DNA of 64,000 bases from an uncultured Alphaproteobacteria bacterium (GCA_966211335.1 CBIHNF010000001.1:151079-215078), one strand, 5' to 3'; shown: positions 9,958-43,070, counted from the stretch's first letter. Translations and numbers: made by a program. The notes: generated from the letters alone by a model not told the origin.

Positions 9958-10136
9958 ACGCTCAAGCGTAAATCCAAGTTCGGGAGACAGGGCGATATCC
10001 TTCTATCTAAAAACATTGGGATTCGGCAACGACATCTCTTCTTTGGCGAAAAGATAATATTGGCTCAAAGGCGTATCCGGCCTCTGCAAATGTTTGAGAA
10101 TTCTAGACAGCTATAAAAAATTAAATATTAAATAGA

Positions 10137-10757
10137 CTACGCATTTTTATCAGCGTTAATATTTGACGATTCCAAATTTTCGCCATCCTCAATAAATTCC
10201 TTGATGTGTTTAAACGCGACCGTTTTCTCTTCTAAGAAAATTTCGTAACCCCTCCTCATAGATTGTAAAAGAGCTACAAAATCTCTGACTAAACGAGCAA
10301 TAAATTTTGTAAAATTATCTTCTCCTGATTTTTTATTATTTTCTGTTTTAAGTTCACTCAATAATTTGTCACGAAACTGAGGATAGTATTCTTCAAATAA
10401 ATCCTGCCAAACTGTCTCGTTTATGTCGCAGTCTAAATGGTGGGCTAAACTATTTCTCACTTTATTAATTTTTAGACAGATGTTTGAAGTTCTTTGGTCA
10501 ATTATACCCATCGAGCAACAAAGCTTAGGTTTAATTGCAAAATTAATTTTGGATAAGTCGATCAGTTCAGGATACTTAAGTTCCATTTTGAGCATTTCAT
10601 CCAAACAGTTCTCGATATAAAGGTGTCCTCGCAAAATTACCGATATTGGATCGGAAGAATTTAATTCGACACGAGCTTTGTTTAAATCAAAAGTGAAATC
10701 TTTTTCGACGTCAAACCCACGCCTGATTTCATCAAAAATGCTCGACTTTTTGGACAT
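10137..10757 (-). CDS. Hypothetical protein with a HEPN-type RNxxxH motif, encoded in an AT-rich islet
   Basis: Composition is strongly AT-rich relative to the flanks. The protein is helical and K/E/N/I-rich and contains KVRNSLAHH, which fits Rx4H with Asn after Arg. I chose the start at MSKKSSIF (10757) because the listed 10811 start would run into the tRNA. Confidence 0.6.
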   Translation of the reverse strand: MSKKSSIFDEIRRGFDVEKDFTFDLNKARVELNSSDPISVILRGHLYIENCLDEMLKMELKYPELIDLSKINFAIKPKLCCSMGIIDQRTSNICLKINKVRNSLAHHLDCDINETVWQDLFEEYYPQFRDKLLSELKTENNKKSGEDNFTKFIARLVRDFVALLQSMRRGYEIFLEEKTVAFKHIKEFIEDGENLESSNINADKNA

Positions 10758-10776
10758 AAATTTTTGATCTAAAAAT

Positions 10777-10868
10777 TGGCGGAGACGGTGAGATTCGAAC
10801 TCACGATACATCTTACGACGTATGACGATTTAGCAAACCGTTGCCTTCAGCCACTCGGCCACGTCTCC
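10777..10868 (-). tRNA. tRNA-Ser (anticodon GCU)
   Basis: The reverse complement reads GGAGACG-TG-GCC-GAGTGGCTGAA-GGC...ACGGT-TTGCTAA-ATCGT-(long variable arm)-GTGAG-TTCGAAT-CTCAC-CGTCTCC-G-CCA. The 7-bp acceptor stem pairs perfectly, the T-loop is TTCGAAT and the anticodon loop is UU-GCU-AA. It is 92 nt with an encoded CCA. Confidence 0.93.
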
Positions 10869-10961
10869 AGCGTTATCGGCGGATAATATACGGATAATTC
10901 GCAAAAACCAAGATTCTTCGACTGGCGCAGTTTGTTATTTGATTTCAAATAAATAGCAGCT

Positions 10962-11717
10962 TCAGCCCTTCAGCGCCGCCGCGTTGGCGCGGATGTTGGC
11001 GGGGGTGAGGCTGCCAAACACAAGGCTGGCGACGCCGGGAGTTTCGGTGACAAAGCGGATATTTTCGGCGAGATCGCCGAGGGGCCCGAGGTGGCCGGAG
11101 GCGAGGCCTTTTTTGACCAGCACGGGTTTGCCAGATGCCGCCGCCGCATCGATCACGGCGCGTTCATCGAGGTAGCCTTTGTTATAGGCGACCATGGCGC
11201 AGTCGGACTTTTCAAGCGCGGCGATGCCGCCCGCGATGGTGTAGGTGGAAACGCCGAAGCTGCCGATAAGCCCCCGCGCTTTAAATTCCGCCAGCACGTC
11301 CAGCACCGCCGTTTCGGTGATGACTTTCACATCATCGCGGTTGCTGTGGACGAGGATGCAGTCGATATAATCTGTCTTGAGGCGCTTCAGGCTGCGCTCG
11401 ACGCTTGCGACCGTATGTTCGCGCGTGAAGATATATTCTGATGTCGCGCCGTCAAACTCCTCCCCCGTCTTGGTGACGAGGAAGAATTTATCCCGCCGCG
11501 CGCCGAGCAGTTTGCCCAAGCGCTCTTCTGCCGTGCCATAGGCAGGCGCGGTATCGAGCAGGGTGATGCCGCAGTCGATCGCGGTATCGAGCAGGGTTTC
11601 AATTTCCGCATCCGTTGGCAGCATGAAGCCGTCGCCGCCCGGATACTTAACGCCGGTGTTGCGGCCGAATTTGACGGTACCGAGGCCCAGCTTGCTGACA
11701 TTTTTCCAACTCAGCAT
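10962..11717 (-). CDS. Aldo/keto reductase family oxidoreductase
   Basis: LGLGTVKFGRN...GITLLDTAPAYGTAEERLG...DYIDCILVHS are typical AKR motifs. I prefer the start at MLSWKN (11717), whose ATG overlaps the upstream gene's TAA (TAATG). Confidence 0.8.
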   Translation of the reverse strand: MLSWKNVSKLGLGTVKFGRNTGVKYPGGDGFMLPTDAEIETLLDTAIDCGITLLDTAPAYGTAEERLGKLLGARRDKFFLVTKTGEEFDGATSEYIFTREHTVASVERSLKRLKTDYIDCILVHSNRDDVKVITETAVLDVLAEFKARGLIGSFGVSTYTIAGGIAALEKSDCAMVAYNKGYLDERAVIDAAAASGKPVLVKKGLASGHLGPLGDLAENIRFVTETPGVASLVFGSLTPANIRANAAALKG

Positions 11718-12889
11718 TACGCCTCCAGCTTGCGGAAGGTCGCGGCTTCCCAAGGGTAAGATCCGACATCCGCCGTCGGCAGCGGCGGCGCGCCGGATTT
11801 GGCGACGGGGTGAATATCTTTATCCTTCAGCCAGTCGAACACGCGGTCGGACAAGACCGGCGCGAAGGTGAGTTTCGTCGGCCATGCCATGAGCACGCGG
11901 CCGCGTTGATGCACATGCGGGCCCGGCGGCAGGTCGCCTTTCGCATCAAACGGTTCCGCGCGGTCGCCGTACCATGTCGCCCATTCTCTGGTCGTCCAGT
12001 CGATATCGGGGAAGACATCCTGCAGTTCTTTCTGCGCGAATTTGATAGCCTCGTCATCGGTCAGCGTCGCGCTTTGTTCCGCCACCGCGCCGCCGAGGTA
12101 CCAGACGAATTCGCCGGGCACGCCTGTCGGGTGGCTCGTCACCGTCATGCGCGGCTTGGGGCTGCTGACAATGCCGTGGCCGTGCAGGGCATAGGGCATG
12201 GGCTTCACCATGATCTGCCGCAGCGGCCGGCGCTGGGCATGATTGTCTTTCACCTTCAGTAATTGCAGCGCGAGTTCATTGCCGGTGCCGGCGGTGAAAA
12301 TAACCAGCTGCGCGCGCATGACGTTGCCGGAGACAACCACCTGTCCGTCCGGCAGCAGTTCCGTCACCTCGCCCTTGAACAACCGGCCTTTGAGATGTTT
12401 GGCGAGGGCGTGGATAAGCGATCTCACCTCCAGCACCTTTTCCGGCAGCTGGTAGACGGGGCCTTTGAATTTTTTCTTGAGACGGAGCACTTCCGGGAAT
12501 TCGTCTTTCTTCAGCTTTTTCGTGGCGGCGTTCACGAGCTTCGCCGCGCCCAAGACTGCGACGTCGGACAGAATGGAGCCCGCCGGCCACATGATTTGCG
12601 TGTCGGACAGGAACTCGACCGCGGTGAGGTCAATTTCTCCCCAGCCCTCGAAGCTCGACTGCCAGCGCTCCGGCATTTTGGCGAGCTGTTCGGCGTGCTT
12701 GGTCAGACTGCCCTGCAGCACATATTTCTGCCCGCCGTGGATCATGCCCTGCGAGGCGAGGGTCTGCCCCGACCCGAGTTTATCTTTCTCGATGAGGATA
12801 ACGTTATAGCCGGCGCGCTTCAGCGTATTGCAGAGCCAGAGCCCCGCAACGCCGCCGCCGAAAATAATCATGTCGTATTCTAATGCCAT
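11717..12889 (-). CDS. FAD-dependent oxidoreductase (DAO/GlpD-like N-terminus)
   Basis: YDMIIFGGGVAGLW...IEKDKLGSGQTLASQGMIHGGQKY is a Rossmann GxGxxG dinucleotide fold with a GlpD-like HGG motif. I prefer the start at MALEYD (12889); the listed longer start would overlap the upstream membrane-protein gene. Confidence 0.75.
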   Translation of the reverse strand: MALEYDMIIFGGGVAGLWLCNTLKRAGYNVILIEKDKLGSGQTLASQGMIHGGQKYVLQGSLTKHAEQLAKMPERWQSSFEGWGEIDLTAVEFLSDTQIMWPAGSILSDVAVLGAAKLVNAATKKLKKDEFPEVLRLKKKFKGPVYQLPEKVLEVRSLIHALAKHLKGRLFKGEVTELLPDGQVVVSGNVMRAQLVIFTAGTGNELALQLLKVKDNHAQRRPLRQIMVKPMPYALHGHGIVSSPKPRMTVTSHPTGVPGEFVWYLGGAVAEQSATLTDDEAIKFAQKELQDVFPDIDWTTREWATWYGDRAEPFDAKGDLPPGPHVHQRGRVLMAWPTKLTFAPVLSDRVFDWLKDKDIHPVAKSGAPPLPTADVGSYPWEAATFRKLEA

Positions 12890-12906: not shown

Positions 12907-13761
12907 CTAAAGGAATAAGGGAAGCGTGATGACGAAGGCGGCGGCGCCCCAGGCCAGCTGTTCCCGCACGGTGCGTTCTTTCCACAAATAGGCGCTGAGG
13001 ACGAGGATGACGGGCTTCGTCATAGCCTGCACCGTCACGACGACGGTGACAGGGTTGATGGTGACCTGCTGATAGGCCTTCACGAGTTCGGTTGCCGCAT
13101 AAAAAATGCCCGCGAGGATGGCAGGGCGCGTCAGCGCGGCGGCGCGGAAATTATCCAGCGTGCGGAAATTCCAGGCGATGGCAACAAGAAACACCACCGC
13201 ATAGGCGGCAATGGAGAGCACATACCAGTTGGCATCTTGGGTGATGATATGGTCGATAATGGAAATGCCCGCCGAAATGCCGACCAGCTTGGTATAGGAC
13301 AACCTGTCGCGCGGCGTTAAATCCGACAGGTGGCCTTTGAGGAAAAAGCCGACCGCCAGGAGGCACAGCCCGATGCTGGAAAACCATTCCTGCGGCTTCA
13401 GGGTTTCGCCAAAGGCGGCGTTGCCGATGGTGATCAGGCCGAGGCTCAGCGGCGTCACGTAATGGCGCGACGACAAACTCACCTTCATCAATTCCTGGCT
13501 GACGATGAAGAGGTAGCAGAGCAATGCGCCCTTCAGCGCGGCCAGCGCCGGCAAGACCGGATTGGCTTCAAACTTTTGCAGCCCTTCCGTGAGCAGATCG
13601 GCATAAAGCGGATAGACCAGCGCGAGCCCGGCCAGCGTCCAGCCGCCGATAAACAGCGGGGCGGTGCGGTGATCCAGCTTCAGGCTGCAGATTTTGAGCG
13701 TGACAAGGTGCCCGACCGTCAGCAGGAAAAGCAGCAGGAGCAGCAGGTGGCCTTGGGTCAT
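12907..13761 (-). CDS. Polytopic integral membrane protein (about 9-10 hydrophobic helices; DMT/EamA-like topology, family not confirmed)
   Basis: Hydrophobic segments recur along the whole 284 aa. It is on the same strand as, and 17 nt upstream of, the FAD-oxidoreductase/AKR pair. Confidence 0.6.
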   Translation of the reverse strand: MTQGHLLLLLLFLLTVGHLVTLKICSLKLDHRTAPLFIGGWTLAGLALVYPLYADLLTEGLQKFEANPVLPALAALKGALLCYLFIVSQELMKVSLSSRHYVTPLSLGLITIGNAAFGETLKPQEWFSSIGLCLLAVGFFLKGHLSDLTPRDRLSYTKLVGISAGISIIDHIITQDANWYVLSIAAYAVVFLVAIAWNFRTLDNFRAAALTRPAILAGIFYAATELVKAYQQVTINPVTVVVTVQAMTKPVILVLSAYLWKERTVREQLAWGAAAFVITLPLFL

Positions 13762-13837
13762 GATTATCCGTTATTATGCAAATATGTGCAGGCGGTTTGC
13801 CCATCATAATAGGCTGAAAAGCGCTGAACAGGGCAAA

Positions 13838-13866
13838 TTGACAAGGGGTGAGGCGTTTTATAGATT
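13838..13866 (+). promoter_or_regulatory. Sigma70-like promoter candidate (TTGACA-17-TAGATT)
   Basis: TTGACA at 13838-13843, a 17-nt spacer and TAGATT at 13861-13866, about 80 nt upstream of the ATG at 13947. Confidence 0.4.
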
Positions 13867-13946
13867 ATGTCATTCCTTTGCCAGATAAAGCCTTCGATTC
13901 GCCGCGATGATTGCGGGGAGCCGTTTAATTTTTGGAAGCACGAAAC

Positions 13947-14285
13947 ATGGCGTCGAAACCCTCGAAAGATTTTAACGACAAGGCGAAAAGCTTTCTCTAT
14001 TCGCTGTCCGTGCGCCCGAAATATTCGCGCCGCACCGATTTTTCGGCCGACATTAAACAGGCGGCCGAGCGCATCCGCGAACTCGCGCGGGAGGAAGGTT
14101 ATTCGCCTTCCGTCCGCATCAAGTTTGATGACGGCGCGCTTGGCAAGCTCGGCATCTTCTTCATGAACGCGCCGGAAAAATTTGCGGCGAAAGTGAAGAA
14201 GATCGACGGCATCCATTCCGTCGAAAAACCCACCGAGCGCAAGGCATCGCCGGGCGGCCGCAGCAAGGGCCGTGGCCCTCGCTAA
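13947..14285 (+). CDS. Hypothetical small basic protein
   Basis: The ORF has coding-like composition. It contains FFMNAPEKFAAKVKKIDGI, a motif shared with the next gene, and ends in a Lys/Arg/Gly/Pro tail. I recognise no family. Confidence 0.5.
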   Translation: MASKPSKDFNDKAKSFLYSLSVRPKYSRRTDFSADIKQAAERIRELAREEGYSPSVRIKFDDGALGKLGIFFMNAPEKFAAKVKKIDGIHSVEKPTERKASPGGRSKGRGPR

Positions 14286-33294: not shown

Positions 33295-34164
33295 ATGCAA
33301 GCAGCTCAACCGATGGTTACGCCCGATGTGCCCAATCACGTGACGCAGCACAAGCATCACGTTGAACTGTCGGCGACGATGGTGAAGGCGAAGCTGGGCG
33401 CGCGGCAGCCGAAAATCGCCATCATCCTCGGCTCCGGCCTTGGCGGGCTTGGCGACAAGGTGACGGATGCAGTCAAGATTTCCTATACCGAGCTGCCGGG
33501 TTTCCCCACCCTTACCATTCCCGGCCATAACGGCGAATTGATTGCGGGGAAATTAAACGGCGTCGAGGTCATCGCCCTCAAAGGCCGCAAGCATTTTTAC
33601 GAGACGGAAGACCCCTACCCGCTGAAAACCATGATCCGCACATTAAAAGCCGTGGGTGTTGATACGCTGTTCGTCTCGAATGCAGCCGGCAGCCTGCGCG
33701 CCGATATTGGCGTGTCCGAACTCATGATGATCACCGACCATATCAACTACATGGGCTTCAACCCGCTGGTCGGCGCGAATGACGAGAATTTCGGCCCCCG
33801 TTTTGTGCCGCTGACGGATGCCTGGGACGCAGACCTCCGCGCCAAGCTGAAAACCGCTGCAAAGAAAATCAACATTCCGCTGCATGAAGGCGTCTACATC
33901 GCCTTCCGCGGCCCGACGTTTGAAACCCCCGCCGAAATCCGCATGGCGAAAACCATGGGCGCCGATGCCGTCGGCATGTCGAGCGTGCCGGACTGCATTA
34001 TCGCGCGGCACTGTGGTATGCGCGTTGTGGGTTGTTCCTGCATCACAAATATGGGCGCAGGCTTGTCGGATGAAAAAATCAGCCATGCGCATACGTTGGA
34101 AAACGCTGGCCGGGGTGCTGCGAATTTTGAAAAGCTGGTGCAGGAGTTTGTGACGCTGCTATGA
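33295..34164 (+). CDS. Purine nucleoside phosphorylase (trimeric PNP/PunA type)
   Basis: AIILGSGLGGL...LPGFPTLTIPGHNGELIAGKL...GRKHFYE...VSNAAGSL...GPRF...FRGPTFETPAEIRM...GADAVGMS are canonical PNP-family motifs. Confidence 0.9.
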   Translation: MQAAQPMVTPDVPNHVTQHKHHVELSATMVKAKLGARQPKIAIILGSGLGGLGDKVTDAVKISYTELPGFPTLTIPGHNGELIAGKLNGVEVIALKGRKHFYETEDPYPLKTMIRTLKAVGVDTLFVSNAAGSLRADIGVSELMMITDHINYMGFNPLVGANDENFGPRFVPLTDAWDADLRAKLKTAAKKINIPLHEGVYIAFRGPTFETPAEIRMAKTMGADAVGMSSVPDCIIARHCGMRVVGCSCITNMGAGLSDEKISHAHTLENAGRGAANFEKLVQEFVTLL

Positions 34165-34907
34165 AGTGCATCGACCTGCCATCGCCGAACTTTAATGACC
34201 GTCGCGAAGGCACGTCGCTGGATTACATCGTCATCCATTACACCAGCATGGATTCCACGAAAGCCGCGCTTGACCGGCTGACCGACCCGAAGTCGGAGGT
34301 CAGCGCCCATTACCTGATTGACGAAAAAGGCAATATCTACACGCTGGTGGATGAGGAAAAACGCGCCTGGCACGCCGGCATTTCCAGCTGGATGGGGAAG
34401 GATGATTTGAATTCCCGCTCCATCGGCATTGAAATGTCGAACCGCGACAACCAGCCCTATACGAATGAGCAGCTTTTCTCGCTCGCGCTGCTGTGCAAGG
34501 ACATCATGTTCCGCCGCGGGATTGCGCCGGAAAATATTTTGGGCCATTCCGATATTGCGCCAGACCGCAAACAGGACCCCGGCTACCACTTCCCTTGGGC
34601 AAAAATGGCGCGGCACGATATTGGCCGCTGGCCGAAGCCGACTATTAAAGACAAATTCAACGCCGCCGCCGTCGCGCGCAGCCCGCGCCAGCTGAAAGAA
34701 CTGTTCAAGGCGGCCGGCTATGGCGTGGAAGCGCATGGCAAGAACAAGCCCGCGCTGAAAGACATCATCAACGCCTTCCAGCAGCGGTATGAGCCGGAAT
34801 TGTTCAAGGACCCGACGGCGACGCCCGGCAAGGCGACGGCCGATACGGTCGCGAAACTCCGCGCCCTCGCCCGCATCAACCAGAACCCCGCTAAAAAACC
34901 CAAATGA
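34161..34907 (+). CDS. N-acetylmuramoyl-L-alanine amidase (AmpD/AmiD-like Amidase_2) with a C-terminal peptidoglycan-binding-like repeat
   Basis: PSPNFNDRR...IVIHYTSM...SAHYLIDEKG...AWHAGIS.W...NSRSIGIE...GHSDIAPDRKQDPG, followed by a C-terminal LKELFKAAGYGV...INAFQQRYEP. Confidence 0.85.
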   Translation: MKCIDLPSPNFNDRREGTSLDYIVIHYTSMDSTKAALDRLTDPKSEVSAHYLIDEKGNIYTLVDEEKRAWHAGISSWMGKDDLNSRSIGIEMSNRDNQPYTNEQLFSLALLCKDIMFRRGIAPENILGHSDIAPDRKQDPGYHFPWAKMARHDIGRWPKPTIKDKFNAAAVARSPRQLKELFKAAGYGVEAHGKNKPALKDIINAFQQRYEPELFKDPTATPGKATADTVAKLRALARINQNPAKKPK

Positions 34908-35641
34908 TTATTACGGATGCGCCATCCCCCAATTTCGGGCCGCGCGCGCATGGCAAAACACCGAGCCTGCTGATTTTGCATTACACCGATACGGCAACCG
35001 CCTTTGACGCGCTGCAGATTTTGCAGTCGCCGGAACGTCAGGTGTCATCTCACTATCTTGTCGATGAGCAGGGCATGGTGATGCGATTGGTGCCGGAGGA
35101 GATGCGCGCCTGGCATGCCGGCAAATCATGGTGGCAGGGAGAGGAAGATATCAATTCCACCTCCATCGGCATCGAGATTCAAAATCCGGGCCACGGTTTT
35201 GGCTATGTGCCTTTTCCGGAGGTGCAGATGGCGGCGGTGGCAAACCTCTGCCGCGATATCATCGCGCGCCATAAAATTCTGCCCTACCATGTGCTGGCGC
35301 ATTCCGATATTGCGCCGGAGCGGAAAAAGGACCCCGGCGAACTTTTCCCGTGGATGTCACTGGCCAACCAGAAAATCGGTTTGTGGCCGGAGCCGACCGA
35401 TACTGAAAAGCTGGATGCCGAGGAAACACCCGCGACGGAGGAAGACATCAAATCCCTCCTCACCCGCTACGGCTATGATCCGCGCCTTGATGCCAAAACC
35501 CTTATCACCGCCTTCCAGCGCCACTTCGAGCCGGAGGCGTTCTGGGATGACGAAAAGGTCGGCCTCATCACCGCCCGCACGGTATACCGCGCCAAAGCCC
35601 TTGTGCGTCAAAGGCTTGCGCTGCGACCGAAGGCGCTTTAA
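34904..35641 (+). CDS. N-acetylmuramoyl-L-alanine amidase (AmpD/AmiD-like), tandem paralog
   Basis: It has the same motif series: PSPNFGPR, LILHYTDT, SSHYLVDEQG, AWHAGKSWW, NSTSIGIE, AHSDIAPERKKDPG and ITAFQRHFEP. There is a 4-nt overlap with the upstream copy. Confidence 0.85.
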   Translation: MIITDAPSPNFGPRAHGKTPSLLILHYTDTATAFDALQILQSPERQVSSHYLVDEQGMVMRLVPEEMRAWHAGKSWWQGEEDINSTSIGIEIQNPGHGFGYVPFPEVQMAAVANLCRDIIARHKILPYHVLAHSDIAPERKKDPGELFPWMSLANQKIGLWPEPTDTEKLDAEETPATEEDIKSLLTRYGYDPRLDAKTLITAFQRHFEPEAFWDDEKVGLITARTVYRAKALVRQRLALRPKAL

Positions 35642-35692: not shown

Positions 35693-36080
35693 AACCAGAG
35701 GGCCGGATGACCGCGGTAGCGATATCGAGGAAAGTCCGGGCTCCATGAGAATCCGGTGCCGGATAACGTCCGGCGAAGGTGACTTCAGGGAAAGTGCCAC
35801 AGAGAACATACCGCCAACCGTCCCTTCGGGGTCGCGGCAAGGGTGAAAAGGTGCGGTAAGAGCGCACCGCGGTCTTGGTAACAAGACTGGCATGGAAAAC
35901 CCCACCGGGAGCAAGACCAAATAGGGAGAGCACGTAACGGCTTCGGCCGCGACAGGGCCCGTTTTTCAGCCCCGCTTTCCGGGTTGGTTGCTAGAGGCTG
36001 CAAGTAATTGCAGTTCGAGATGAATGGTCATCCGTGCCCGCAAGGGCGCGACAAAACCCGGCTTACAGGCCCTCTGGTTT
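35693..36080 (+). ncRNA. rnpB: RNase P RNA, bacterial type A
   Basis: GAGGAAAGTCCGGGCTCC lies at about 35727-35744, with GGGTGAAAAGGTGCGGTAAGAGCGCACC and ACAAAACCCGGCTTACAG. The terminal P1 pairing is CCAGAGGGCC...GGCCCTCTGG, followed by a T-run. All ORFs listed across this interval are spurious. Confidence 0.93.
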
Positions 36081-36112
36081 ATTTTTTTTGAGTTGATTGA
36101 AGGATACGCATC

Positions 36113-37408
36113 ATGAGCTATGACACCGTCGAAGGCATCCATTACATTTTTGACCGCTATGCGTTCATCAATCAAATCATGGCGGACGGCGGCTTTCCGG
36201 TGCGGATTTCTGAAAGCTCCGACAAGGCGGAAATTTCCAAGGCCTTCGGCCATGCGCGCGGCATGTACCACCCCGACCGCCAGGCCCGTACGGGGGAGGA
36301 AATGCGCAAGAAGGCCGAACAGAAAACCCTGCTGATTGGCGATTGCGAGCGCTTCCTCAACAACCCCGAGCTGAAAAGTTTTTACGACGCCAAGCTGGCC
36401 GAATTCCGCGAGAATACGCCGCATCTTGTCAGCAAGGACGGCACGGCGATGATTGATTTGTCGCGCACCTTCTTCGATATTTCGGCGCTGCTGTCGGACA
36501 AAGTCGTCGATACCTCCGGCTTCGAGGCGCAGGTGAAATCCATGCTGCAGTACGATGAATCGCGCGTTGAGCAGGCGAAAAGCCTGTTCGATATGCTGCC
36601 CGATAACCCGAAGGTGCAGGGCGTTTACCGCGACGCGCTGACGCAGAAGTATGTTTACCTGACGTTGCTTGAAGATTCCGCTTGGGCGAAAGTCGGCTAC
36701 ATGAACCGCAAGGAAAAAGAAGAAGGCTTCCTGGCCTCGCCGAAGGACTACACCAAGCGCATTGAAGCCGCGCTGCAAAAATCTGCCGCGCGCGATATTG
36801 AATCGACCGTCGAGCGCAACGGGGAAATTGCACGCCTCGGCATGGCGCGGACGCCGCTGATGCTGGATGCCGTTGAAGGTACCATGCCGACCGCCGTGAA
36901 CGAACAGACCGCGCCCGAGCAATACGAAGGCCTGATGGTGAAGTTCAAGGAAGTCGCCCGCAAGAACTTTGAAATTCGCGCCGAATATGTGCGCGATGTG
37001 GCAAAGCAAAAGCAGGAAGTGCTGGAAACCCTTTGCACCCTCTCGCCGACGGAAGAGCTGATGACGCCGGACCTCGCCAAAGACACCGTGGTTGATTTCA
37101 TTCTGCTCAACCCGCCGGAAGACGGGCAGCAGAAGGCGCTGTTCCGCATGTTCCTCGATACCGCGACCGGCAATGCCGGCATCGCCGAAACCTATAAGGG
37201 CGAAACCCTGGCGGATATCAAAACCGCGGGCGTGCCGCGCGGCACCTTCGCCATCACCCGCAACCCCGAGATCAGCGATATCATGGTGGAAGCCGGCGCG
37301 GCGGCGGAGCGCTACCTTGATAAAGTCGAGGCGGCGAAACCCAAAGCCGAGCAGACACCCAAGCAGAAGATTCGCAAGCCGAAAGCGCCGAAGGCTCCCG
37401 GCCAATAA
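36113..37408 (+). CDS. Orphan J-domain-containing protein (431 aa) with an uncharacterised C-terminal region
   Basis: SSDKAEISKAFGHARGMYHPDRQ...MRKKAEQKTLLIGDCERFLNNPELKSFYD fits J-domain helix II, the HPD loop (nt 36269-36277) and helices III-IV. There is no G/F region and no zinc finger. It ends KIRKPKAPKAPGQ. The 518-aa antisense ORF is R/G/L-rich and was rejected. Confidence 0.7.
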   Translation: MSYDTVEGIHYIFDRYAFINQIMADGGFPVRISESSDKAEISKAFGHARGMYHPDRQARTGEEMRKKAEQKTLLIGDCERFLNNPELKSFYDAKLAEFRENTPHLVSKDGTAMIDLSRTFFDISALLSDKVVDTSGFEAQVKSMLQYDESRVEQAKSLFDMLPDNPKVQGVYRDALTQKYVYLTLLEDSAWAKVGYMNRKEKEEGFLASPKDYTKRIEAALQKSAARDIESTVERNGEIARLGMARTPLMLDAVEGTMPTAVNEQTAPEQYEGLMVKFKEVARKNFEIRAEYVRDVAKQKQEVLETLCTLSPTEELMTPDLAKDTVVDFILLNPPEDGQQKALFRMFLDTATGNAGIAETYKGETLADIKTAGVPRGTFAITRNPEISDIMVEAGAAAERYLDKVEAAKPKAEQTPKQKIRKPKAPKAPGQ

Positions 37409-37453
37409 TCTGGAAAACGAATTCAGCTTTTTTTCTAATATGTTAATCGTTGA

Positions 37454-37482
37454 TTGACATAGTAGTCCTGCTTTCGTAGGGT
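37454..37482 (+). promoter_or_regulatory. Sigma70-like promoter candidate (TTGACA-17-TAGGGT) ahead of the paralog array
   Basis: TTGACA at 37454-37459, a 17-nt spacer and TAGGGT at 37477-37482, within the 112-nt AT-richer gap between the J-domain gene and paralog 1. Confidence 0.35.
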
Positions 37483-37520
37483 GCCGCTGTCCCAAAATTG
37501 CTGCGATTTGAAGGTGCTCC

Positions 37521-37886
37521 ATGGCTGAAGTTTACGCTGCCCTCAATCCTTATACGCTGCGCGTTGTCGAAGAGGAAAAACGCACCCTCGACAATTACGG
37601 CTCGCAGTATATGACGCATCTTTCTTCCATCACCCGCACGTTCAATTTTCTGGCGGCGCAGGTGGAGACGGTGACGCGCGACCTGCTGTACCAGTCGCAC
37701 GGGTCGGAGCGCGGCGGTGCAGCCTCCGTCGCCACCCTGAGCCGCGTCGAAGGCTTCGACGAGCTGCCGAGTACGGCGGAAGTGCGCTACATGCACGAAA
37801 AACTGAAATCCCTCGGCGGTACGCCGCCCGCGCTGGAAGAAACCCTTGGCGGTTTCAAGAAGCAGCTAAAGCCGGTCGGGCCGTAA
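37521..37886 (+). CDS. Small protein, paralog 1 of a five-member tandem family
   Basis: Family motifs: LNPYTLRV; TRTFNFLAAQVETV; GFDELPSTAEVRYMHEKLKSLGGTPPALEE; tail KKQLKPVGP. It is closest to paralog 4. Confidence 0.7.
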   Translation: MAEVYAALNPYTLRVVEEEKRTLDNYGSQYMTHLSSITRTFNFLAAQVETVTRDLLYQSHGSERGGAASVATLSRVEGFDELPSTAEVRYMHEKLKSLGGTPPALEETLGGFKKQLKPVGP

Positions 37887-37890
37887 CGCC

Positions 37891-38241
37891 ATGGTCGTCA
37901 GCGAAGACTTCTACAAAATCAACGATCACAGCATTGCCCAGCGCACCAACCAGCGCGTCTGGGATGATGCCAACTGGACGCGCGATTCCACGCTCTGCCG
38001 TGAATTCAACTTCCAGTCCCGTCAGGTGACGGTGACGAACGAGGCCATGGTGTGGAAGAAAGCGGGTAACGAGCCTGCGGTCGGCACCAGCACTTTCGTT
38101 CAGAATTTCAGCGATATCGAGGGCCGCGGCGAGATTGAGCGCGCCCATGCGAAGCTCATCGAACTCGGCGGCGCACCGCCCGCGCTCGAGGATATTTTCG
38201 GCGCCGGTAAAAAGCCCGCCCGCCTGCCAACCGCGGATTGA
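37891..38241 (+). CDS. Small protein, paralog 2 of a five-member tandem family
   Basis: Family motifs: INDHSIAQ; CREFNFQSRQVTVT; NFSDIEGRGEIERAHAKLIELGGAPPALED; tail GKKPARLPTAD. It starts 4 nt after the paralog 1 stop. Confidence 0.7.
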   Translation: MVVSEDFYKINDHSIAQRTNQRVWDDANWTRDSTLCREFNFQSRQVTVTNEAMVWKKAGNEPAVGTSTFVQNFSDIEGRGEIERAHAKLIELGGAPPALEDIFGAGKKPARLPTAD

Positions 38242-38245
38242 ACAT

Positions 38246-38620
38246 ATGCCCCCCATCTTCAGAAAGATTGACGAATACACGCTGCAGGCCATTACGCCGC
38301 TGGGGGAGAAAGACGAGTGGGGTAACGCGCGCATCCGCCGCATTTTCAATTTTCAGGCGCGCGACGTGACGACGCTGTACGAGCGCGGCGGCAAGGTGGA
38401 CTATAAAATTCCCGGCCATAGCAACTATGTTGAGAAAGCCGCCGCTGCCATGGCGGTCACCAGCAGCATGACCCAGCGCAGCTTCAGCGATTTCGACAGC
38501 ATGGAGGAAATCATCGCCATGCACGCCAAGCTCAAGTCACTCGGCGGCACGCCGCCCGCTATCGACGATCTGGTCAACACGCTGCCGAAAAAACCAGCGA
38601 AACTGACGCCGCCCCAGTAG
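38246..38620 (+). CDS. Small protein, paralog 3 of a five-member tandem family
   Basis: Family motifs: IDEYTLQA; RRIFNFQARDVTTL; SFSDFDSMEEIIAMHAKLKSLGGTPPAIDD; tail PKKPAKLTPPQ. The start is at the ATG at 38246, 4 nt after the paralog 2 stop. The listed 38135 start would overlap paralog 2. Confidence 0.7.
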   Translation: MPPIFRKIDEYTLQAITPLGEKDEWGNARIRRIFNFQARDVTTLYERGGKVDYKIPGHSNYVEKAAAAMAVTSSMTQRSFSDFDSMEEIIAMHAKLKSLGGTPPAIDDLVNTLPKKPAKLTPPQ

Positions 38621-38641
38621 AAATTCAGTAAAGGAAACATC

Positions 38642-39010
38642 ATGCAGGAAGAATTCAACCGCGTCGGCGATTACACACTCCGTATCGATTTCCGCCGCAA
38701 TGATATTGAACGCGGCGGCGTGCAGAAATGCGACGGCTATACGAAGCTGTTCAACTTCCTGTCCCGTCAGGTGACGACGATCCACCGCGACTGGCTGTCG
38801 GAAGGCCGCGGCAGCAGCGCCGGGGGCAATTCCGCCGTCGCCGCCTCGACCACGATTGAAAGTTTCGACTCCCTGCCGTCGGATGCGGAAGTAAAATACA
38901 TGCATGCAAAACTCGTCACCCTTGGCGGCACGCCGCCCGAGCTGGAAGATGTCTTGCCGAAAACGCCGGCGAAACTGCCCGCCGCGCTGCGCCCCGCCAA
39001 TCAGGGTTAA
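38642..39010 (+). CDS. Small protein, paralog 4 of a five-member tandem family
   Basis: Family motifs: VGDYTLRI; TKLFNFLSRQVTTI; SFDSLPSDAEVKYMHAKLVTLGGTPPELED; tail PKTPAKLPAALRP. The RBS is AAAGGAAA. Confidence 0.7.
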   Translation: MQEEFNRVGDYTLRIDFRRNDIERGGVQKCDGYTKLFNFLSRQVTTIHRDWLSEGRGSSAGGNSAVAASTTIESFDSLPSDAEVKYMHAKLVTLGGTPPELEDVLPKTPAKLPAALRPANQG

Positions 39011-39034
39011 GATATTTTACGTAAGGTTAAAGCC

Positions 39035-39352
39035 ATGTCCGATGAAAATACCGAAACCTTTGAAAAGCTGAACGATTATACGCTGTCAGTGCGCACCAAT
39101 TTTTCCCATCAGCCGGAGAGCGACCCGACGCTGCGGCGTATTTTTAACTTCCGTGCGTGCCAAGTGACGGAGATTTACAGCGTCTGGTACAGCGAAGCTG
39201 TCAGCACCACGATGCTGCAAACCCGCTTCAGCGACCTCGACAGCCAGGACGAGGCGGAGCTGCTGCGGGACAAGCTGCGCAGCATGGGCGGCCGCCCGCC
39301 GGAAAGCGCACCGCCGCGCACCCTACCCGGCAAAAATTCTCTCCATCCCTAA
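39035..39352 (+). CDS. Small protein, paralog 5 (most divergent) of a five-member tandem family
   Basis: Family motifs: LNDYTLSV; RRIFNFRACQVTEI; RFSDLDSQDEAELLRDKLRSMGGRPPES. Confidence 0.65.
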   Translation: MSDENTETFEKLNDYTLSVRTNFSHQPESDPTLRRIFNFRACQVTEIYSVWYSEAVSTTMLQTRFSDLDSQDEAELLRDKLRSMGGRPPESAPPRTLPGKNSLHP

Positions 39353-39452: not shown

Positions 39453-40562
39453 ATGTCGCAGGGTTTTCCACTTTTGGGGGTGTGGCCTGCCGTTCGGCAA
39501 AAAATAAAAAACTTGGAGTTTCCGGGGCATCGTTCCCCGGGAGCCGTCATCGGGGTTGCACTGCAGTTGAAGAAGACGTCACCGTCAAAAGTCGCCGCCA
39601 CAAGCGGAACGACCGGTCATATTCCGGTCATGCTGGCCGAGGTGCTTGAAACCCTCAGCCCCCGCGACGGGGGCGTGTATGTGGACGGCACCTTCGGCGC
39701 GGGCGGCTATACCCGCGCGATACTCGAGGCCGCCGACTGCACCGTCTACGCGATCGACCGCGACCCCGCCGCCATCGAGCGCGCGAAACCCTTTCAAAAA
39801 CAATACGGCGACAAGCTTCAAATGCTGCACGGTTGCTTCGGCGATGCGGAAAACCTGCTGGCGGCGGCGGGCGTAGAGAGCATCGACGGCTTCGTTCTTG
39901 ACCTTGGCGTCTCCTCCATCCAGCTGGAAACGCCGGAGCGCGGCTTTTCCTTCCAGTCGGATGGACCCTTGGACATGCGCATGAGCCTTGCCGGCCTCAG
40001 CGCCCGCGATGTCGTCAACAAGGCGGCGGAAAAAGACCTTGCCGATATACTGTTCACCTATGGCGAAGAACGCGCCAGCCGCGCGATTGCCAAAAAAATC
40101 GTCGCCGCCCGCGCGTTGAGCCCCATAGAGACGACGCTGCAGCTCGTCGATGTCATCCACAGCGTGCTGCCGATGCACGGCGGCCTTAAAACCGATACCG
40201 CGACCCGGACCTTTCAGGCGCTCCGCATCTACGTCAATGACGAGCTGGGGGAGCTGGAGCGGGCGCTGGACGCCGCCGAAAATCTGCTGGCGATCGACGG
40301 ACGCCTCGTCGTCGTCTCCTTCCACTCGCTGGAAGACTGGCGCGTGAAAAACTTCTTCCGCGAAAAATCGGGGCGCGAACCCAATGCTTCCCGCCACCTG
40401 CCGCAGCGGCCCGATGCGCCGGTGCCGAGCTTCCGCATGGAAGCGAACAACGGCGTGAAGCCGTCGCAGGAAGAGATTTCAAGAAACGCGCGCTCGCGTT
40501 CGGCGCACCTGCGCTACGGCATTCGCACTTCGGCACCTGTCATGGAGGCGCGGCATGCGTAA
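39453..40562 (+). CDS. rsmH: 16S rRNA (cytosine1402-N4)-methyltransferase RsmH (MraW)
   Basis: HIPVMLAEVLETL...GVYVDGTFGAGGYTRAIL...DLGVSSIQLE...RGFSF..DGPLDMRM...SFHSLEDWRVK are canonical. The true start is probably internal, since conserved sequence begins about 55 codons in. Confidence 0.92.
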   Translation: MSQGFPLLGVWPAVRQKIKNLEFPGHRSPGAVIGVALQLKKTSPSKVAATSGTTGHIPVMLAEVLETLSPRDGGVYVDGTFGAGGYTRAILEAADCTVYAIDRDPAAIERAKPFQKQYGDKLQMLHGCFGDAENLLAAAGVESIDGFVLDLGVSSIQLETPERGFSFQSDGPLDMRMSLAGLSARDVVNKAAEKDLADILFTYGEERASRAIAKKIVAARALSPIETTLQLVDVIHSVLPMHGGLKTDTATRTFQALRIYVNDELGELERALDAAENLLAIDGRLVVVSFHSLEDWRVKNFFREKSGREPNASRHLPQRPDAPVPSFRMEANNGVKPSQEEISRNARSRSAHLRYGIRTSAPVMEARHA

Positions 40563-41337
40563 GACGACCCTGCTCTGGCTGTTCTTGGCCGCGATCTGCG
40601 GCGGCATGCTGTTCCACACCAGCCAGCAGGTGACGGACGGCCGCACAAAACTCGCCTCCATAGAAGCCGCAACGCAGAAGGAAGATGAATCCCTGCGCGT
40701 CCTGCAGGCGGAATGGAGCTACCTGAACCAGCCCGACCGGCTGGAAAAACTCTCGAAGCAGTATCTCGACCTTGCACCCTTAAAGGGCAAGCAGTTCGCC
40801 AAGGTCGCCGACCTTGAAGCAAAACCGGCCAGCGCGAAAGCAGATGACGTCGCCGCCCCCGTGATTGCCGATGAAGGGAATGGCACCGCAACGCTGCCCG
40901 TACCGGATGAAAAAGTGGATATCGCAAAAACGGAAGTCGCGAAAACAGAGAATACAAAACCCGCGCCCGCCAAACCGGAACTGGCCCTGACCCCCGTAGT
41001 GCCCGCAAAACCGCTGCCGCTGAAAATTGAAAAAGCCTCCGGCGATGAACTTGTCTCGCCGCTGAAAGCGCAAGCGAAACCGGCCACGCCGAAAACCGCG
41101 ACAGCTTCTGCCGCCTCCGTTGCCCATGCGCCTTTGCGCGGCTATGTCTATTCACCGCCAAAGCCGGCGGCCCTGCGCGGCGGCGTTTATCACCCGCCCG
41201 CAAAACCCGCGGCTGGAAAAGTATCGCCGGTTTATAACTACAAAGCCCCCAGCTACCCCACCCTTCAGGGCGCGACCGGCGGCCAGCGCGACTTCGGCGA
41301 TGTGATCAAAAGCCTTGGCGGGAGCCCCCACCCATGA
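40555..41337 (+). CDS. ftsL: Cell division protein FtsL-like, with a long Pro/Ala/Lys-rich C-terminal extension
   Basis: It occupies the position between rsmH and ftsI. An N-terminal TM helix (LLWLFLAAICGGMLF) is followed by a coiled-coil (LRVLQAEWSYLNQPDRLEKLSKQYLDL), as in alphaproteobacterial FtsL. About 170 further residues of low-complexity PAKP-type sequence follow. Confidence 0.75.
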   Translation: MRKTTLLWLFLAAICGGMLFHTSQQVTDGRTKLASIEAATQKEDESLRVLQAEWSYLNQPDRLEKLSKQYLDLAPLKGKQFAKVADLEAKPASAKADDVAAPVIADEGNGTATLPVPDEKVDIAKTEVAKTENTKPAPAKPELALTPVVPAKPLPLKIEKASGDELVSPLKAQAKPATPKTATASAASVAHAPLRGYVYSPPKPAALRGGVYHPPAKPAAGKVSPVYNYKAPSYPTLQGATGGQRDFGDVIKSLGGSPHP

Positions 41338-43070
41338 GCGAATATGAAGATAACGACCAGACCATCCCCGGTACGCAATCAAGCGTGCTGGGTCAGGCAA
41401 AATTGCGCCTGATCATGGTGGCGGGACTTTTACTGCTCGGCTATACCGCCATTTCGCTGCGCCTTGTCGACCTGACGCTGCTGCGCTCCAAACCCGTGCA
41501 GCAGGTGGCGGTTGATCCTGAAACCGATGTGCGACCGCTGGACAAACCCCTCCGCGGGACCATCCTCGACCGTAACGGGGAGCTCGTCGCAACCTCGCTT
41601 GCCATGGCTTCTGTCTATGCGGATACGACGGCGATCGACAACAAGGCACAGGTGGCAAAAGAACTCAGCGCCATCCTGACGGACGCGAGCCAGGAAGAAC
41701 TGCTGCGGAAATTATCCTCCGGCAAAAAATTCATCTGGATCGAGCGCAACATTACGCCGAAGCAGGAATATGCCATCAACGCGCTCGGCCAGCCCGGCCT
41801 TTCCTTCCAGGATGAAGACCGCCGCATTTATCCCGGCGCCAGCCTCACCTCACACCTCATCGGCTATACCGACGTCGACGGCCACGGCATTTCCGGCATC
41901 GAGAAGTTTGCCAACAAGCAGCTGGAAAAAGGCGACGAGCCGGTGAAGCTGACCATCGACCTCCGCGTGCAGCACATCATGCACCGCGAACTTGCCGCCA
42001 GCATCGCCAAGTTCCACGCCAAGGCCGGCATGGGCATTGTGATGGATGTGAATACGGGCGAAATCATTTCCATGGTCTCCCTGCCGGACTTCGACCCGCA
42101 CCACCCCGGCGATTCCTCCGATGACGCGAAATTCAACCGCGATACGCTCGGCGTTTTCGAGATGGGCTCGACCTTCAAGCTGTTCTCCATCGCCTCGGCG
42201 CTTGACAGCGGCAAGGTGAATTTTGGCTCCAGCTTTGATGCGGGCGAGCCTATTCATTACGGCCGCTTCACCATTACCGACTATCACGCTAAGAAACGTG
42301 TCCTCTCCGTCCCTGAAATTTTCATCTATTCCTCCAACATCGGCACCGCGCGCATGGCGGCGGCGGTGGGCGGCGACCATCTGGAAAACTTCTATAAATC
42401 GATCGGCTTTTTTGCGCCTGTGCCCGTGGAATTGCCCGAGCGCGGCCAGCCACTGTACCCGAAGCCGTGGCGCGATATTTCGACCCTCACCTGCTCCTTC
42501 GGCCACGGCATTGCGGTGTCGCCGCTGCATGTCATCCGCGCGGCTTCGGCGCTGGTCAACGGCGGCATCCTGGTGACGCCGACGCTGCTGAAGAAGGATA
42601 CCGAAAATTTAAGCCTGACGCCTGAAGGCGAGCGCGTGATCAAGCCGCAAACATCCCTTATGATGCGCCAGCTGATGGCGCTGAACGTGGCGGATGGTTC
42701 GGGCGCGCAGGCGGCGGTGGACGGCTACAACGTCGGCGGCAAGACCGGTACGGCGGAGAAAAACAAAAACGGGCGGTACGAACATAACCTTCTCGTTTCC
42801 TCCTTCATGGGCGCCTTTCCGATCGACAATCCGCGTTATGCCGTGCTGACGATATTGGACGAGCCGCAGGGCATTCCCGAAACGCATGGTTTCGCCACCG
42901 CCGGCTGGACCGCCGCGCCCGTCGTCTCCAAAGTTGTCGAACAAATGGCGCCGCTCTACCACATTTCACCCGCGCTTGATTCCCGCCCCGATATTTTGCG
43001 GGAAATGGGCATGTACCTGAAAGAAGTCAAAGAAGGAAAAAGCCTTGCAGCTACTGGATATGATCGCTGA
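41334..43070 (+). CDS. ftsI: Peptidoglycan D,D-transpeptidase FtsI (PBP3)
   Basis: The transpeptidase motifs STFK (GSTFKLFS), SSN (YSSNIG) and KTGT (GGKTGTAEK) are present, in dcw position. Confidence 0.95.
   Translation: MSEYEDNDQTIPGTQSSVLGQAKLRLIMVAGLLLLGYTAISLRLVDLTLLRSKPVQQVAVDPETDVRPLDKPLRGTILDRNGELVATSLAMASVYADTTAIDNKAQVAKELSAILTDASQEELLRKLSSGKKFIWIERNITPKQEYAINALGQPGLSFQDEDRRIYPGASLTSHLIGYTDVDGHGISGIEKFANKQLEKGDEPVKLTIDLRVQHIMHRELAASIAKFHAKAGMGIVMDVNTGEIISMVSLPDFDPHHPGDSSDDAKFNRDTLGVFEMGSTFKLFSIASALDSGKVNFGSSFDAGEPIHYGRFTITDYHAKKRVLSVPEIFIYSSNIGTARMAAAVGGDHLENFYKSIGFFAPVPVELPERGQPLYPKPWRDISTLTCSFGHGIAVSPLHVIRAASALVNGGILVTPTLLKKDTENLSLTPEGERVIKPQTSLMMRQLMALNVADGSGAQAAVDGYNVGGKTGTAEKNKNGRYEHNLLVSSFMGAFPIDNPRYAVLTILDEPQGIPETHGFATAGWTAAPVVSKVVEQMAPLYHISPALDSRPDILREMGMYLKEVKEGKSLAATGYDR

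Follow-up and report, generated by a model that had tools for sequence, protein, structure and literature searches.

A lineage-restricted class-C J-domain protein and a small-paralog array heading the dcw cluster in Micavibrio-like Alphaproteobacteria

J-domain proteins set where Hsp70 acts, and in the class C (type III) members HscB, DjlA and DjlB/DjlC a J-domain with its His-Pro-Asp (HPD) tripeptide is the sole feature shared with DnaJ and is joined to a family-specific domain, from which specificity for a client or a site is expected. The first position of the dcw (cell-division/cell-wall) gene cluster, upstream of rsmH, is usually occupied by mraZ. The locus described here bears on both systems. 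It lies in a window (the whole stretch of DNA analysed) of 64,000 nucleotides from an uncultured Alphaproteobacteria bacterium (GCA_966211335.1 CBIHNF010000001.1:151079-215078), whose given strand carries at 36113..37408 the gene of a 431-residue J-domain protein, termed here the J-protein, and, downstream on the same strand, an array of five related small proteins followed by the dcw cluster. The J-protein is a class-C ('orphan') J-domain protein, and both its family and that of the small paralogs are uncharacterised families found only in Micavibrio-like bacteria. A preliminary description of the locus had suggested a J-protein/client module; we consider it rather more probable, though well short of certain, that an independent class-C J-protein lies beside a dcw-leader paralog operon and that the two are separate units.

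The distribution of the two families among related genomes carries this reading. Related-genome loci (coded L001-L035) were fetched for comparison with the window: a scan with the J alignment, using one genome per GTDB species, gave 20 loci, metagenomes were scanned for small-family arrays with a subtype alignment (A6), and 10-20 kb of each fetched locus was read and searched with hidden Markov models (HMMs) of both families. An array is counted here as lacking the J gene at its locus only, and a J gene as lacking the array when no small-family member occurs within 10 kb. The J gene stands beside the array in 12 distinct loci (the window, L003/L013, L006-L012, L019 and L035), in which it encodes a protein 49-91% identical to that of the window, lies between rnpB and the array, and is followed by 3-5 paralogs, so that the linkage first noted in the window does recur in other genomes. 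The array without the J gene was found in 9-10 loci (L026-L031, L033, L034 and a JGI contig, with L032 as a probable case), each bearing 4-7 copies and most of them set in the same sdhAB-PNP-amidase-amidase-rnpB context. Finally, the J gene without the array occurs in 8-9 loci of unrelated context, Micavibrio aeruginosavorus included: it is flanked by prfA and ispG in M. aeruginosavorus (L001/L017 and L016) and in L018, and by the flagellin gene and flgE in the case of L005; in L020-L025 it adjoins glmS, eno and other genes. Adjacency wherever either family occurs was thus not observed, and the module claim is supported in part by the first group of loci and weakened by the other two.

The closest comparison is offered by the collinear loci L035, with the J gene, and L026, without it, which share 75-89% DNA identity (the genomes being about 80% identical) and differ by an exact 1.3-kb J segment located between the T-run of rnpB and the promoter element of the array. 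In a neighbour-joining tree, built from FtsI only, J-carrying and J-less loci are interleaved, L003/L013 grouping with the J-less L026 at 100% bootstrap and the J-less L031 falling on the side of the window's clade, and J identity follows FtsI identity across the loci. Both the interleaving and the parallel divergence of J and FtsI therefore point to an ancestral J gene with independent losses; the J gene was probably present at the array site ancestrally in one clade, and at least four losses, with the array retained each time, would make the simplest history. Since the array would have outlasted at least four losses of the J gene, the adjacency of the two is best taken as a shared location, with very likely co-transcription in one subclade, and would not imply an obligate pair of J-protein and client.

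The constant neighbour of the array is the dcw cluster, not the J gene. The conserved core of rsmH, located with an in-frame RsmH query, begins 170-330 nt past the last paralog in 22 of the 22 array loci with downstream sequence, and the order after rsmH is ftsL, ftsI, murE, murF and mraY. The array operon may thus be regarded as part of the head of the dcw cluster, in the position that mraZ would usually take.

A second line of evidence comes from the 112-nt spacer that separates the J gene from the first paralog. It holds a T-run, followed by an imperfect palindrome, ATATGTTAAT-N5-ATTGACATAG (37438-37462; also written ATATGTTAAT-N5-ATTGACATAT), and the promoter-like element as a whole (37438..37482, same strand) includes a perfect TTGACA at 37454-37459, a 17-nt spacer and TAGGGT at 37477-37482. 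In a search of the window the palindromic element was unique, with 0 occurrences expected by chance. Its cross-locus form, ATATGTNAAT-N5/6-ATTNACATAT, overlaps the TTGACA -35 box and is followed 17 nt downstream by TA...T, and it is kept before the first paralog both in J-carrying loci (L003, L006, L007, L013 and L035) and in J-less ones (L026, L027 and L028), for instance at 7311-7335 in L003, 7537-7561 in L026, 7504-7528 in L027, 7534-7559 in L028 and 11350-11375 in L007. Where found, the palindrome occurs once per locus and always before the first small paralog; it is absent between the J gene and the array in the L009-type loci (L009-L011 and L019) and also in L008. From its consensus and conservation, the element appears to be a sigma-70-like promoter/operator of the array's own, and the palindrome looks like an operator for a dimeric regulator. 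The five small genes would then form a tightly packed operon of their own that starts from this element downstream of the J gene. Two of the loci, L007 (11400-11900) and L008 (11285-12050), have an extra 0.5-0.8 kb between the J gene and the first paralog, which in L007 carries an additional open reading frame (ORF) downstream of the palindrome.

Several points weigh against regarding the J-protein and the array as separate units. The adjacency spans appreciable divergence, down to 49% identity in the J-protein and 56% in FtsI. A distance of 12 nt, with GGAG and no palindrome, separates the J stop codon from the ATG of the first paralog in L009-L011 and L019, where the J gene and the array are very likely co-transcribed. 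A functional link would agree well with this. A J gene might be present elsewhere in genomes with a J-less array, and small-family genes elsewhere in M. aeruginosavorus. The promoter role of the palindrome is deduced from consensus and conservation, the link of the array to dcw is positional only, the fold matches of the paralogs are weak (template modelling (TM) scores of at most 0.46 against the PDB), the idea that they act as dimers is an analogy, and the window J-protein, taken on its own, scores under the Pfam gathering score for DnaJ (22.5 versus 27.8 bits).

The alternative that survives best is a dedicated module, in which the C-terminal region of the J-protein would bind the paralogs as clients or adaptors and hand them to DnaK, so that a hetero-oligomer could be folded, assembled or taken apart; genomes with a J-less array would use a J-protein encoded elsewhere or the housekeeping DnaJ. 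The position of the J gene directly upstream and on the same strand in the 12 distinct loci, the 12-nt gap with a ribosome-binding site in the L009-type loci and the probably ancestral, vertically inherited adjacency all agree with such a module, and hetero-oligomers of several paralogs are plausible chaperone clients. Set against these are the 9-10 arrays without the J gene, the clean J-only indel between close relatives among them, the 8-9 J genes without an array within 10 kb, the repeated and independent losses of the J gene that this distribution implies, and the separate, conserved promoter-like element of the array in the window. It is also suggestive, and only suggestive, that the ten J clusters nearest to the L003/L035 type have no member on the contigs (2.25 and 2.56 Mb) that carry an L026-type array. 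The Lys/Pro-rich tails at the ends of both kinds of protein, which the preliminary description had likened to each other, are indeed present and predicted to be disordered, but the likeness is one of composition and the tails are not homologous: hhalign gave a probability of 0.3 for the J family against the small family, on which ground homology of the C-terminal beta domain or tail of the J-protein with the small family was rejected. Altogether, we judge a dedicated module to be unlikely, if deserving of serious attention. Coupling between the J-protein and the array as its client is possible but not favoured, since either family can occur without the other beside it, the array in the window appears to have a control element of its own and its dcw partner is constant; gene adjacency alone would have overstated the link.

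The five small genes themselves, related as described earlier, encode proteins that are mutually 28-44% identical and share invariant FNF and GG.PP motifs, and they are separated by intergenic gaps of 4-24 nt. All lie on the strand of the J gene: paralog 1 (37521..37886, 121 aa, subtype 9), paralog 2 (37891..38241, 116 aa, subtype 1), paralog 3 (38246..38620, 124 aa, subtype 2, distinguished by an ERGG...Y insertion), paralog 4 (38642..39010, 122 aa, subtype 8) and paralog 5 (39035..39352, 105 aa, subtype 3, a short form), as delimited from the ORFs and the family alignment. The start of paralog 3 is the ATG at 38246, its orthologues beginning MP(T/P)F..., and not the TTG at 38135 of a mechanical ORF list. 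When 1.84 billion representatives were searched exhaustively with an HMM, only 190 members of the family were found; a word-indexed search found 173, the latter all from the Micavibrio-like type of metagenome-assembled genome (MAG) and none of them annotated. Across genomes the copy number per array ranges from 3 to 7 and the order of subtypes is constant, with subtype 9 or 7 first, then 2 and 8, and subtype 3 (about 105 aa) invariably final. On the alignments the subtypes are evidently ancient, and their antiquity together with the kept order argues for non-redundant roles. The same domain stands C-terminally in ankyrin-repeat proteins of 343-550 aa (P0283, P0294, P0304 and P0311), as a tandem duplicate in a protein of 211 aa (P0305) and as 9 matched stretches in one of 1352 aa (P0310), and both L027 and the JGI 3300056388 contig have an ankyrin-repeat gene close to their array.

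The AlphaFold2 model of paralog 1, with a mean predicted local distance difference test (pLDDT) score of 86.6, consists of a five-stranded meander sheet with a pair of C-terminal helices, followed by a basic tail that is disordered; the same sheet backed by two helices is predicted for every one of the paralogs. Foldseek against the PDB returned weak matches to CapZ alpha/beta and to levivirus coat proteins (E about 5e-3), and against the viral library BFVD only weak levivirus-coat-like ones for this paralog; no sequence relative of the small family was found in the PDB. A defence or phage origin of the locus was considered and rejected, there being no match in PADLOC and none of meaning in PHROGs. 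Identity of the small family with MraZ was rejected likewise, on account of the different predicted fold and the lack of any sequence match: for none of the five paralogs did Pfam or NCBIfam yield MraZ (PF02381) at E values up to 1. By analogy, the paralogs are most likely hetero-oligomeric partners that would work on, or together with, the machinery of division and of the envelope, a view taken because the CapZ and levivirus coat folds act as dimers, CapZ being formed from paralogs. A bolder version of this analogy would make the paralogs a CapZ-like hetero-oligomeric division component or regulator, not known before, that replaces MraZ as dcw leader in an order of obligate predators, and the J-protein an ancestral DnaK adaptor for assembling or dismantling the complex during the predator's attack-and-divide cycle, with the J-losing lineages relying on another J-protein; we hold this to be very improbable.

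The case for the J-domain, which in the window protein alone is borderline, is settled by the family context, that is, by homologues, profile and model together. The gene (36113..37408) is delimited by its ORF and by a start conserved in the homologue alignment, and the J-domain (residues ~11-101, 36143..36415) by profile matches from Pfam, NCBIfam and the PDB, by the AlphaFold2 model with Foldseek and by invariant columns, with the HPD codons CAC CCC GAC for residues 53-55 read directly at 36269..36277. The sub-threshold match to Pfam DnaJ (PF00226) covers residues 32-92 at E=1.2e-4, whereas 9 of 21 orthologues match this family, the best at 5.5e-7, and a precomputed PF00226 match is present on several of them; the NCBIfam matches (DnaJ and ActJ models) are confined to the J-domain. 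When the J-family profile was run against all PDB sequences, the top 14 matches were all J-domains, led by E. coli DnaJ (1bqz, E=4e-4, residues 31-93) in an alignment that spans helix II, the HPD, helix III and the '...YD' end. Among 20-21 homologues, with identities down to 27%, H53 and D55 never vary and P54 is conserved in at least 90%; the preceding YIFDRY motif is invariant as well, and the N-terminal 100 residues are the best conserved part of the protein. In the AlphaFold2 model (pLDDT 85.3, predicted TM score 0.75) helices I (15-26, extended), II (38-51), III (62-83) and IV (85-101) form the four-helix J fold, with an antiparallel II/III hairpin and the HPD in the loop between II and III, and Foldseek superposes the model on solved J-domains at 1.6-2.8 Å, best on 6rzy_A (TM 0.87, root-mean-square deviation (rmsd) 1.6 Å), with 2dmx, 2ej7 and 2ctq matched at probabilities of 0.9-1.0. 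The J-domain with an intact HPD that had been read by eye is thereby confirmed, with support from the family's sequence profiles and from the model.

It could still be argued that the J-like segment has degenerated into a relic no longer able to engage DnaK, and that the protein works through its C-terminal region alone. The score of the window protein under the Pfam gathering threshold, an atypical helix I with an insertion and a single homologue with HTD for HPD (P0045, on a 116-kb contig) would fit a relic, but the near-complete conservation of the HPD residues down to 27% identity, the rank of the N-terminal 100 residues as the most conserved ones and the superposition of the model on J-domains do not, and we find the idea highly doubtful.

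Because the J-domain is present but the Gly/Phe (G/F) region, the zinc finger and the DnaJ C-domain are absent, the protein is assigned to class C. Pfam gave no match in it to DnaJ_C (PF01556) or to the zinc finger (PF00684), and TIGR02349 reached 21.6 bits against a cut-off of 377, over the J-domain stretch only, in accordance with the absences reported at the outset. The family-specific region (residues ~110-408, 36440..37336) is modelled mostly with pLDDT above 85 and contains long helices at 166-193, 210-241 and 268-309, a small beta domain at 313-382 and a terminal helix at 391-408; it is followed by the predicted disordered Lys/Pro-rich tail (37337..37405), for which the last blocks have pLDDT 39-53 and which in the homologues is variable and rich in K, P and A. 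As the preliminary description had it, some 330 residues resist assignment: residues 110-431 had no match in Pfam, NCBIfam, PADLOC, PHROGs or the PDB sequences, and Foldseek against the PDB gave no confident match outside the J-domain. By analogy with known J-proteins, the J-domain (helices I-IV, HPD 53-55) would dock on ATP-bound DnaK and trigger ATP hydrolysis, while residues ~110-408 are presumed to be a client- or target-binding module, the helical region, the small beta domain and the Lys/Pro tail possibly selecting the client or the cellular site.

The homologues of the J-protein form at least 51 clusters, or at least 58 in a wider search, both counts being lower bounds, and all come from Micavibrio-like or related alphaproteobacterial MAGs, with members in the cultured predator M. 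aeruginosavorus strains ARL-13 (G2KM51) and EPB (M4VFM1, listed in UniRef as 'J domain-containing protein'). As far as these sequences tell, the family is restricted to the lineage of Micavibrio-like predatory Alphaproteobacteria. A literature search on Micavibrio with J-domain or mraZ returned nothing relevant. M. aeruginosavorus HCB189 (L016) encodes a second, unrelated J-domain protein of 258 aa (13462-14238, ...FKSHPDRDGG...), which lies past ispG, some 2 kb downstream from the family member, with ClpB about 4 kb upstream.

Around the J gene and the array, the window has the following arrangement. The gene of the RNase P RNA, rnpB, lies at 35695..36081 on the same strand (Rfam RF00010, 312.6 bits, E=1.9e-101), and rnpB precedes the J gene, or directly the array in most J-less loci. 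From the end of rnpB to the J ATG there are 31 nt, comprising only a T-run (GGTTTATTTTTTTT) and an AAGGA ribosome-binding site, an arrangement repeated in L003, L007, L009 and L035; it leaves no space for a separate J promoter, and read-through from rnpB, or a promoter located within it, may account for expression of the J gene. Upstream of rnpB, at 34161-35641, are two overlapping tandem Amidase_2 genes (N-acetylmuramoyl-L-alanine amidase type), which keep their synteny with PNP and sdhAB across most of the related loci, so that cell-wall genes stand on both sides of the locus. Downstream of the array, the dcw cluster opens at 39453..43070 on the same strand with rsmH, an ftsL-like gene and ftsI, assigned from ORFs and from the Pfam matches of the syntenic loci (Methyltransf_5, PBP_dimer/Transpeptidase and Mur ligase). 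The rsmH gene has its conserved core from about 39630 and ftsI runs from 41334 to 43070; the product of the ftsL-like gene (40555-41337) has 260 aa, well above the typical length of FtsL, and a long C-terminal extension rich in Ala, Pro and Lys. In L031 and the JGI contig (3300056388), Peptidase_C93 genes lie upstream of the array in place of rnpB and rsmH is still downstream. Farther off in the window, positions 10001-12000 around tRNA-Ser(GCT) (10777-10868) have a G+C content of 0.49 against about 0.59 elsewhere and may represent an integrated element. An RNA role, with the J gene, the array or both co-transcribed with RNase P RNA and the coat-like sheets binding RNA, is the least probable of the explanations, since rnpB directly upstream in most loci, its close spacing to the J gene and the weak matches to the RNA-binding levivirus coat proteins are offset by the arrays of L031 and the JGI contig, which precede rsmH without rnpB, by the J genes of other lineages, which lie far from rnpB, and by fold matches with TM below 0.5 and rmsd mostly of 8-20 Å.

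The J-protein and the array each matter in their own right. A lineage-specific J-domain protein present in cultured M. aeruginosavorus points to a predator-specific task for DnaK. The array, with its 3-7 ancient paralogs without known relatives at the head of dcw (22/22), is a testable candidate for the control of division in epibiotic predators; it is the more unusual feature of the locus and may matter more than the J-protein.

The two units are worth comparing with the systems that resemble them most. With DnaJ and CbpA (class A and B Hsp40), the J-protein has in common a J-domain that aligns with residues 10-67 of E. coli DnaJ, whereas the G/F region, the zinc finger and the C-terminal substrate-binding domains of those proteins are wanting. 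It agrees with the class C proteins in having the J-domain with HPD as its only DnaJ feature, and differs from them in the 330-residue region without known relatives and in its restriction to Micavibrio-like bacteria. HscB is alike in the N-terminal J-domain followed by helices, and HscB structures are among the Foldseek matches; however, the HscB C-domain (a three-helix oligomerisation and IscU-binding domain) is not matched in Pfam or NCBIfam, and beyond the J-domain the HscB structures 4it5, 1fpo and 3bvo deviate by 16-23 Å rmsd. DjlA, in contrast to the J-protein, has a transmembrane anchor. As for the paralogs, CapZ alpha/beta and levivirus coat proteins show the same antiparallel sheet backed by C-terminal helices and are the best Foldseek matches (probability up to 1.0), and both are dimers, CapZ a heterodimer of paralogs; the TM scores of at most 0.46, the rmsd mostly of 8-20 Å and the lack of sequence similarity make this a fold analogy only. 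Finally, the array resembles MraZ in its place, directly upstream of rsmH-ftsL-ftsI and behind a promoter-like element, and departs from it in that 3-7 diverged paralogs stand where there is usually one gene.

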